This document shows positions 17,890 to 19,023 of a DNA stretch of 35,501 nucleotides, piece after piece. Origin of the DNA: an uncultured Methanosarcinales archaeon (GTDB lineage Archaea > Nanobdellota > Nanobdellia > Woesearchaeales > CAZXZL01); NCBI GenBank assembly GCA_964645415.1, contig CAZXZL010000005.1, positions 1 through 35,501 of the forward strand. Direction: 5' to 3'. The notes under the pieces were generated by a model. The model had not been told where the DNA came from. It saw only the letters and a program-made list of their open reading frames with translations, and did no database searches. A program made the position numbers and the translations under genes. Each line of letters starts with the position of its first letter. The first letter of the stretch is position 1.

Positions 17890-19023
17890 ATGAAAAGTAA
17901 CTTATTAAAAAAAGTAACATATCTTGGATTAGGTACAGTTATGATTTCAGGATTAATAACAAGTCAGATGCTAGTAGATAATAGTGATCTTGAAAAAGAA
18001 ATATTTAATGAAATGAATTCTTCAGTAAAAAGTGAAACTTATTATAATAACAATAATAACAATCAAATTAGTAAAAATATTAAATACCATCAAAATAATA
18101 ATTTGAAATTAAATAATAACAATAATCTTTCTTTAGAAGAAGTTTTAGATTCAGAAATAAATAATTCTAATTTGGAATTTAATAATATTGATTATTATAA
18201 TTATAATAACATTAATCACAATAATAATAATAATAATAATAATAATAATAATGATGTTAGTAATCTTATTAGTCTAAAAGAAATATATGAAAAAAATAAC
18301 ATAGATAATATAGATGAATATAAGAAGAGGCATTTAAGTAATATTAATAACTTTGAAAATAACATAAAAAGAGTATATAATATAGGAAAAGATTATTTTA
18401 AAGAAAGTAATTTAAGTGTTGATTTCAATGAACTTGATATATATTCTTTGATTTTCATAGAAAGTACTTTTGATGAAAATAAAATTAACCAAAATTATAA
18501 TTTTCCAAACGATTATGGCCTTATGCAAGTAAATGAAGTAGTTAATAATGATTTAAATAGAATCTATAATTTAAATGAATCAAGTAATTATTTCTTTTCA
18601 GAAACACAAAAAATGTTAAAAGATTTTTTTACACAAGATGATTTTAATTCTAACCGATTTAAAGAGACAAGTGATAATTCAAAATATAACATTAAAGCAG
18701 GAATCTCATATCTTTTTATGATTAATGAATATTTTAATAAAATAAATTCACTAGATTTTAATTCATTAGATGAAAATACAAAGCTTGATTTAATTATGTG
18801 GGCTTATAATAGAGGTCCTTATGAAGTAGAAAATAGATTTATTAACTCTCCAAATAATTGGTTATCTAGTATGCCTTATAATACAGAATCAGGTAATATT
18901 AGACAAGATAGTTTTTATAATATTAGAGAAATATATAAGAACTTCTTTGAATTTAATGATAATCAAAAAGATAATCCTTTAGGAGATTATAATTTAATTT
19001 TAGAAAATAATAACTTTAATTAA
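17890..19023 (+). CDS. Membrane-anchored lytic transglycosylase (SLT / GH23 lysozyme-like domain) with an Asn-rich low-complexity linker
   Basis: An N-terminal TM segment (VTYLGLGTVMISGLITSQMLV) is followed by an N-rich region. The SLT motifs appear in order: IESTF (catalytic Glu-Ser, Glu codon 18460-18462), GLMQV (18517), NIKAGISYL and AYNRGP (18802). Confidence 0.8.
   Translation: MKSNLLKKVTYLGLGTVMISGLITSQMLVDNSDLEKEIFNEMNSSVKSETYYNNNNNNQISKNIKYHQNNNLKLNNNNNLSLEEVLDSEINNSNLEFNNIDYYNYNNINHNNNNNNNNNNNDVSNLISLKEIYEKNNIDNIDEYKKRHLSNINNFENNIKRVYNIGKDYFKESNLSVDFNELDIYSLIFIESTFDENKINQNYNFPNDYGLMQVNEVVNNDLNRIYNLNESSNYFFSETQKMLKDFFTQDDFNSNRFKETSDNSKYNIKAGISYLFMINEYFNKINSLDFNSLDENTKLDLIMWAYNRGPYEVENRFINSPNNWLSSMPYNTESGNIRQDSFYNIREIYKNFFEFNDNQKDNPLGDYNLILENNNFN
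18220..18252 (+). repeat. Perfect (AAT)11 microsatellite encoding Asn11 inside the SLT gene
   Basis: Read directly as cac-(aat)x11-gat, translating to H-N11-D. Confidence 0.95.

Follow-up and report, generated by a model that had tools for sequence, protein, structure and literature searches.

The window analysed here, a stretch of 35,501 nucleotides (positions 1 to 35,501 of contig CAZXZL010000005.1), encodes in an archaeal genomic setting a protein of 377 amino acids (aa) with an export-type N-terminus and a C-terminal domain assigned to the SLT/GH23 family of lysozyme-like enzymes. The protein is arranged in three parts, namely a Lys-Lys pair with a 21-residue hydrophobic leader, a linker of around 120 residues and a C-terminal domain of around 225 residues. 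The gene, hereafter the SLT gene, and the elements recognised in and before it are the following.

17839-17846, + strand: TATA-box-like element TTTATAAA upstream of the SLT gene, read from the sequence, with a presumed role in the promoter
17879-17884, + strand: Shine-Dalgarno-like AGGTGG, 5 nucleotides (nt) 5' of ATG 17890
17890-19023, + strand: coding sequence of the predicted exported SLT/GH23 protein, 377 aa
17914-17976, + strand: hydrophobic segment VTYLGLGTVMISGLITSQMLV after Lys-Lys, predicted as a Sec signal peptide or signal anchor
17977-18345, + strand: low-complexity linker rich in Asn (35 % of its residues, compared with 9 % for the proteins of the window taken together)
18436-18840, + strand: SLT (PF01464) catalytic core, residues 31-165 of the isolated domain fragment aligned on profile positions 16-105 of 117
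18460-18465, + strand: catalytic Glu-Ser of motif I (IESTF, 18457-18471), invariant in all 5 aligned sequences
18511-18531, + strand: motif II, D-Y-G-L-M-Q-V (GLMQV at 18517-18531), with D, Y, L, M and Q invariant in the family
18688-18714, + strand: motif III, N-I-K-A-G-I-S-Y-L, with N, G and L invariant, aligning to NI.xGxxYL of MltC and MltE
18802-18819, + strand: motif IV, A-Y-N-R-G-P, with Y-N-R kept in the three clade members, aligning to AYNGG of MltC

The longest open reading frame (ORF) call runs further 5', to GTG 17881, and ends with the stop at 19023. The true start is most likely ATG 17890, which is preferred since AGGTGG stands just upstream of it and a database copy of the protein (P0001) begins at the same ATG. 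This copy, identical to the window protein except for one Asn, is encoded on an independent ENA contig of 9.1 kb (L001), and the sole difference between this contig and the window over the 9.1 kb is one AAT unit.

Assignment of the C-terminal domain

The isolated C-terminal 225 aa matched the Pfam profile PF01464 (SLT) with 33.4 bits and an expectation value (E) of 3.6e-8, the gathering score being 21.3, and the same profile was matched independently by all three members of the clade described below. An earlier note on this DNA, made from its letters, had proposed a family-1 lytic transglycosylase and had named this Pfam search as the check; on the isolated domain the result lies above the cut-off, though the full-length protein gave no match in the Pfam search, an outcome that, by the criterion set in the note, would have counted as a refutation. 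No match was obtained either when the full-length protein was searched against PDB sequences. The failure of the whole-protein Pfam search is probably caused by the Asn-rich linker, since the match appears once the linker is removed. A profile made from five sequences and run against PDB sequences gave top places that were taken exclusively by lytic transglycosylases, with an MltC-like protein (E 1.7e-4), MltC (3.9e-4), a phage tape measure protein (6.4e-4), MltE (2e-3) and Slt (5e-3), and c-type lysozymes came after them. Taken together with the conserved catalytic residues described below, these profiles place the protein as a divergent member of the SLT/GH23 lysozyme-like superfamily.

The close relatives of the protein are very few. 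When 1.84 billion cluster representatives were scanned in full with HMMER, three proteins in all came back, that is, two relatives (342 and 488 aa) at E <= 1e-3. One relative (P0002), 49 % identical, comes from a Candidatus Woesearchaeota metagenome-assembled genome (MAG), and the other (P0003), 27 % identical, from a Logan contig with a G+C content (GC) of 27 %. A word-indexed search of 5.8 billion proteins returned the protein itself only, and the use of a profile added the Woesearchaeota orthologue and two marginal phage-like SLT proteins. The NCBIfam search of the domain gave nothing, the PHROGs search gave weak matches only, to families of unknown function, and a scan of GTDB genomes with an SLT-profile pattern recovered only generic bacterial SLT proteins (Sulfuricurvum, Francisella); relatives were found neither in the IMG/VR scan nor in the JGI metagenome scan. 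At the level of sequence, the three proteins are thus a very small, separate clade. The best matches beyond it reach only E 2e-3 to 6e-3, so that no donor lineage can be named.

Modelling of the domain with AlphaFold 2 (AF2) from the single sequence gave a predicted local distance difference test score (pLDDT) of 41; the model built from the five sequences is all-alpha, with a pLDDT of 75.7 and a predicted template modelling score (pTM) of 0.77.

Catalytic motifs and chemistry

Family-1 lytic transglycosylases carry four consensus motifs, E-S, G-L-M-Q, N/x-x-x-G-x-x-Y-L and A-Y-N-x-G. All four are found in the ORF at the positions listed above and in the canonical order, as the earlier note had read them, and its further claim that the catalytic Glu is retained was upheld by the alignment, in which this residue (18460-18462) is invariant and falls on the Glu that is catalytic in MltC and MltE; in entry 4cfo, an E-to-Q mutant of MltC, a Gln occupies the same position. 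The elements E-S, D-Y-x-L-M-Q, N-x-x-x-G-I-x-x-L and Y-N-R are preserved among clade members that are only 27-49 % identical, which argues for a maintained active site.

The canonical spacing that had been claimed for these motifs did not stand. In the domain 135 residues extend over 90 profile positions, with insertions, relative to compact SLT domains of around 120 residues, of about 29 aa between motifs II and III and of about 14 aa between motifs III and IV. Read from this comparison, the two insertions are family-specific.

A closer look at motif II bears on the chemistry of the enzyme. Here the D-Y-G-L-M-Q-V-N segment aligns with D-Y-G-L-F-Q-I-N of the c-type lysozymes, the Asp being placed at the position of lysozyme D52 and of EtgA D60. 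In EtgA, an enzyme of the type III secretion system, D60 is the equivalent of D52 of hen egg-white lysozyme and is important for activity, the choice between muramidase and lytic transglycosylase chemistry being left unresolved (PMC10880428). Lytic transglycosylases cleave without hydrolysis, by means of a single catalytic acid, and have no Asp as nucleophile or stabiliser. With an Asp at this position in the window protein, the two chemistries are indistinguishable and a muramidase is equally possible. Of the family-1 lytic transglycosylase first proposed, the SLT/GH23 family and the motifs therefore hold, and the transglycosylase chemistry is not secure; "GH23/SLT-family murein glycosidase" would be the justified label at the level of sequence, and "lytic transglycosylase" would not yet be.

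Leader and linker

The leaders of the two orthologues end with classic cleavable Sec-type sites, both of the AxA type (..SPAQA/TN in P0002 and ..SAFG/SS in P0003, the slash marking the site), and those of the two proteins encoded on either side of the SLT gene, which are described below, likewise end in cleavable Sec-type sites (..SADA/SN and ..GVLA/ND). In the window SLT protein the corresponding stretch (..ITSQMLV/DN) has no obvious AxA cleavage site. The protein may thus begin with a signal peptide that is cleaved off instead of the membrane anchor that was first proposed, and a tethering of the protein to the membrane is possible.

The linker contains an (AAT)n microsatellite at 18220-18252, which encodes 11 Asn in the window, whereas contig L001, the independent one, has 10. 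As its length varies by an AAT unit, the linker is seen as a length-tolerant and probably disordered spacer shaped by AT-biased slippage, and not as a designed "stalk". The Asn-rich spacer of the earlier note is thus recovered, at a length of about 120 aa in place of about 150 aa.

Genomic setting

The genes that accompany the SLT gene are those of an archaeon. The window encodes aRF1 (408.8 bits) and, directly upstream of the cluster formed by the SLT gene and its two neighbours, a CDP-archaeol synthase (CarS) equivalog (152.7 bits, cut-off 148), together with PyrB/PyrI, a CDP-alcohol phosphatidyltransferase and further housekeeping genes. The GC of the window is 22 %. Between 7923 and 16678 the genes of the window and those on a contig of the Woesearchaeota MAG GCA_048623255.1 are collinear, and their products share 55-81 % of their amino acids. 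The GC at third codon positions (GC3) is 0.12 for the SLT gene and likewise for all the other genes of the window, and the SLT orthologue of the Woesearchaeota MAG is also located on a contig of low GC (25 %). The archaeal encoding that had been assumed from the start is supported by aRF1, by the CDP-archaeol synthase and by the synteny with the Woesearchaeota MAG, and the SLT gene is accordingly assigned to a Woesearchaeota-like DPANN archaeon, as a gene resident there and not as contamination.

Three other origins were considered and rejected. A recent horizontal transfer of the gene is opposed by its composition, given a GC3 like that of all its neighbours; a mobile element or provirus by the housekeeping flanks and by the window itself, in which there is no integrase or phage gene; and a mis-assembly by the identical second assembly.

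The window also holds a family of six small paralogous proteins (189-243 aa), cytoplasmic, without a Pfam match and mutually 24-36 % identical, of which the Woesearchaeota MAG has three copies in the syntenic position (L004 1251-3170). Their genes are located as follows.

2866-3576, 4393-5124, 6681-7394, 9159-9827, 9833-10402 and 10405-11016: six-paralogue family

The flanking porin-like paralogues

On both sides of the SLT gene, and on the same strand, lie the genes of two predicted secreted proteins.

16802-17782, + strand: upstream neighbour (p329), predicted to be secreted, 326 aa, with a beta-rich domain at 17036-17779
19216-20898, + strand: downstream neighbour (p560), predicted to be secreted, 560 aa, made up of a leader, a middle part that is helical and acidic, and, at the C-terminus, a porin-like beta-barrel domain (20161-20895)

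The two are paralogues, with 32 % identity over 253 residues, and they have in common with the SLT protein the leader and a "D.EK..NEMN" motif that follows it. Before each of the three genes whose products share the leader stand an A(A/C)ATTTATAAA element, almost the same in all three (16717-16742, 17839-17846 and 19150-19165), and a Shine-Dalgarno-like AGGTG/GGGGG element, an arrangement that suggests separate but similar promoters.

The isolated C-terminal 245 residues of p560 matched the Pfam profile of a Gram-negative porin, Porin_4, with 29.6 bits (E 8e-7), which is marginal with respect to the gathering score of 27, and the full-length protein remained under this cut-off with 22.4 bits. 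The remaining weak matches of p560 in Pfam and NCBIfam are all to outer-membrane barrels (FadL, OMP_b-brl, the TonB-receptor barrel, PopA, AcfA and CglE), the best in NCBIfam being PopA with 17.5 bits against a cut-off of 150. The Pfam search of the 326-aa paralogue gave no match. The beta-amphipathic periodicity of both proteins (z 4.6 for p560 and 3.5 for the 326-aa paralogue) is the highest among the 40 proteins of the window, the next value being 1.8, and p560 ends in GLELSF, which resembles the beta-signal of outer-membrane proteins. Sequence searches of the PDB gave no related structure for the beta-barrel domain, and a profile scan of the JGI metagenomes gave no homologue of it. Porin-like barrels would be unexpected for a monoderm DPANN archaeon.

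The layout of the locus differs in the related MAG, the only relative with which it could be compared. There the SLT orthologue is found on a separate contig, behind genes for RNase H and RNase T, and the orthologue of p560 (P0007) is found at the same locus as here, after CarS and two unrelated ORFs (254 and 127 aa) and without an SLT gene; a conserved p329-SLT-p560 arrangement was rejected on these grounds. What lies between CarS and the gene of the 560-aa protein is variable (16680-19215, compared with L004 8612-10000); the stretch is occupied here by the 326-aa paralogue and the SLT gene. Upstream of CarS, a gene for a helix-turn-helix regulator is inverted in the related Woesearchaeota MAG.

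Several further features were observed in and around the paralogues. The middle part of p560 (19700-20160) is extremely acidic, rich in Asp and Glu, and includes, at 19970-20055, a tandem repeat of 27 nt in degenerate form. Both paralogues have kept a DDDRDY motif, at which cations may be bound. A 472-aa ORF at 22476-23894, leaderless, helical and otherwise unrelated, ends in ...YEDLMLRFGIDRGIDYDELESILELELSF; its last 30 residues or so (23784-23894) show about 71 % identity with those that end p560 (20788-20898), and the common C-terminus would be either a shared terminal module or a remnant of recombination. Directly downstream of the p560 gene lies the gene of a YdjM-family membrane protein (20955-21380; PF04307, E 8.7e-17).

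Proposed function and alternative explanations

The SLT protein is probably a muralytic enzyme that a Woesearchaeota-like DPANN archaeon exports and that acts on the peptidoglycan of neighbouring bacteria. In this scheme the Sec-type leader would carry the protein across the single archaeal membrane, and the flexible Asn-rich linker of about 120 aa, in which changes of length are tolerated, would leave the SLT domain either released or held on the linker. Outside the cell, the C-terminal SLT/GH23 domain would cleave the beta-1,4 bond between N-acetylmuramic acid (MurNAc) and N-acetylglucosamine (GlcNAc) in the peptidoglycan of the neighbouring bacteria, with the Glu at 18460-18462 as the general acid and the Asp of D-Y-G-L-M-Q probably assisting. 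The product could be 1,6-anhydro-MurNAc, as from a lytic transglycosylase, or reducing MurNAc, as from a muramidase. The activity might help the archaeon to breach or loosen the wall of a bacterium that is its host or prey; it might also kill competitors or make wall material available for scavenging. Bacterial murein, the substrate named in the earlier note, is likewise rated here as the most plausible one.

Several observations weigh against this interpretation. The Pfam searches of the SLT protein revealed no LysM, PG_binding, SH3 or other peptidoglycan-binding module, and no gene for the uptake or catabolism of muropeptides was indicated in the window. The clade has three members, so that the gene is no general trait of the lineage, and the two insertions could alter the substrate specificity. 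The best PDB match of the AF2 model in Foldseek is MltE, and it is not significant (E 1.4, template modelling score (TM) 0.36-0.41); the best match in BFVD, a phage tail tape measure protein, is also statistically weak (E 0.31), and the family assignment accordingly rests on the sequence profiles.

Some of the same features would fit an enzyme that acts on a glycan other than murein (chitin, chito-oligosaccharides, or a surface glycan of the archaeon or of its host), or a domain whose main role is that of an adhesin, binding carbohydrate with little turnover. The domain has diverged strongly and its two insertions lie around the substrate groove, the absence of a binding module for peptidoglycan from the search results points the same way, and the lysozyme-like Asp suggests a hydrolytic chemistry for which the C6-OH of MurNAc is not needed. 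GH23 includes enzymes with chitinase activity, and lysozymes of the c and g types cleave chitin oligomers. However, all four motifs of the murein-active family-1 enzymes are retained, including AYNxG and the NxxxGxxYL helix, and the closest relatives of known structure are all murein enzymes, and this alternative is held to be rather unlikely. A role on the archaeon's own surface, in which the enzyme would remodel a murein-like wall or clear space for a surface machine of the cell itself, is very improbable, even though this is the default role of SLT enzymes in bacteria and the gene is fully ameliorated (GC3 0.12) and stands among housekeeping genes. Murein is not known from archaea; the bonds of pseudomurein are beta-1,3, and it lacks MurNAc. 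Moreover, no mur, pbp or secretion-machine gene is present within the 35 kb of the window, the position of the gene varies between close relatives, and the clade is very rare, unlike what is seen for an essential wall enzyme. As for an artefact, whether a bacterial or phage gene brought in by mis-assembly or chance motifs in an AT-rich, Asn-rich ORF, the failure of the full-length protein to match Pfam or the PDB and the ability of low-complexity sequence of 19 % GC to yield spurious ORFs would speak for it; it is effectively refuted by the E of 3.6e-8 at the domain level in Pfam, by orthologues that keep the motifs at 49 % and 27 % identity, by the same locus in a second assembly, by a GC3 equal to that of the neighbours and by the 25 % GC contig of the MAG orthologue.

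An explanation of another kind takes in the neighbours of the SLT gene. The enzyme would then be part of a three-gene module for breaching envelopes, in which the flanking porin-like barrels insert into the outer or inner membrane of a Gram-negative host and the SLT enzyme opens the murein. PopA of the predator Bdellovibrio reportedly inserts into the membrane of its Gram-negative host, and PopA is among the outer-membrane barrels to which p560 is weakly matched, its C-terminal domain being above the Porin_4 cut-off. The three genes are adjacent, on the same strand, and have in common the leader, the "D.EK..NEMN" motif and the near-identical ATTTATAAA boxes; the beta periodicity of the paralogues is the strongest in the window, p560 ends in GLELSF, and the SLT and p560 genes are both kept in the related MAG. 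On the other side, the adjacency is not conserved, with the SLT orthologue on another contig in that MAG, and the separate promoters imply that there is no operon; the Porin_4 match is marginal and falls below the cut-off for the full-length protein, p329 has no match, and neither a related structure in the PDB sequences nor a homologue in the metagenomes was found for the barrel domain. A combination of a pore-former and GH23 was proposed for Woesearchaeota as "vampirism" by Vigneron et al. (PMC9723730). Such a module is considered unlikely, and it is quite unlikely that the SLT enzyme and the two paralogues make up an archaeal toolkit for breaching the Gram-negative envelope with porin-like or PopA-like barrels inserted into the membranes of the bacterial host. 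If confirmed, the flanking barrels would be a more consequential discovery than the SLT gene: outer-membrane-type beta-barrels, so far deemed bacterial or organellar, would be made by a monoderm DPANN archaeon, and the toolkit would be direct molecular evidence for episymbiosis or predation of an archaeon on a bacterium.

The action on neighbouring bacterial murein that we favour bears on a wider matter. Much of the diversity of archaea belongs to the DPANN, and the hosts of most of their lineages are unknown. Exported murein-cleaving enzymes are one of the few genomic hints that some Woesearchaeota and Pacearchaeota interact with bacteria and not with other archaea. The SLT gene of the window would be a compact and easily expressible representative, with a domain of about 250 aa, for biochemical testing of this hypothesis. 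As whole-protein Pfam searches miss SLT genes with Asn-rich linkers, surveys may undercount them.

Comparison with known systems

SLT/GH23 in this group of archaea is a known phenomenon, of which the window gene is a divergent further example. Three DPANN genomes with SLT/GH23 had been noted by 2015 (Rinke 2013 and Castelle 2015, both as given in PMC8204110), and among the analyses of 2021 to 2024 GH23 was reported from five Woesearchaeota MAGs of Lake A (Vigneron 2022, PMC9723730) and from DPANN MAGs of oxygen-deficient zones (PMC10936187); GH23/SLT proteins have also been discussed for Pacearchaeota (PMC11537232). The DPANN GH23 proteins had already been read as tools against bacterial walls (PMC8204110, PMC9723730, PMC10936187). 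In view of these reports, the surprise implied by the earlier note is much reduced. What is distinctive here is the small size of the protein, its rare and divergent clade, the two insertions, the lysozyme-type Asp and the invisibility of the domain to whole-protein Pfam annotation.

The nearest of these precedents is fam00969 of Castelle et al. (2021), a family specific to Woese- and Pacearchaeota of large proteins, extracellular and up to about 3000 aa long, that are murein-like lytic transglycosylases (PMC8204110). The window protein has in common with it the SLT domain, the Woesearchaeota-like DPANN host, the predicted extracellular location and the same proposed role against bacterial walls. 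Compared by description, it differs in having 377 aa, with a leader, an Asn-rich linker and a single domain.

With the bacterial family-1 lytic transglycosylases (MltC, MltE/EmtA and Slt70) the protein shares the four motifs in order and the aligned catalytic Glu; its model is all-alpha, with MltE as the best Foldseek match, which is not significant. It differs from them in an identity of only about 15 %, in the two insertions, in a helical C-terminal extension and in its archaeal host without murein; the residue before Y-G-L-M-Q is an Asp, in place of the Ala or Asn of MltC and MltE. In this last respect it resembles EtgA and the c-type lysozymes (GH22), with an E...D-Y-G-(L/I)-(M/L/F)-Q-(I/V)-N arrangement. 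Unlike EtgA, however, it has no associated secretion system, its sequence gives no significant match to EtgA, and its matches to lysozymes reach only E 0.08-1.

The nearest sequences outside the clade are two small SLT proteins of phages or prophages (P0004 and P0005; E 2e-3 to 6e-3). Like the window protein, they have an N-terminal hydrophobic segment and an SLT domain, with G/N-D-Y-G-L-M-Q-I-N, and the region that encodes P0005 is prophage-like and also holds an S24 repressor, ERF and YqaJ. They are, in contrast to it, compact (190 aa) and lack both the insertions and the linker.

Bactericidal archaeal peptidoglycan hydrolases have been demonstrated by experiment in Halogranum (Woldo/Danwoldo; PMC12352652) and in Aciduliprofundum (a GH25 lysozyme; PMC4241558). 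These enzymes differ from the window protein in their catalytic domains (an M23 peptidase or glucosaminidase, and GH25), in their dedicated peptidoglycan-binding domains, in their free-living euryarchaeal hosts and in their demonstrated activity. The likeness is in the arrangement as a whole, in which an archaeon exports, here by prediction, a murein hydrolase of bacterial type for which its own wall holds no substrate.

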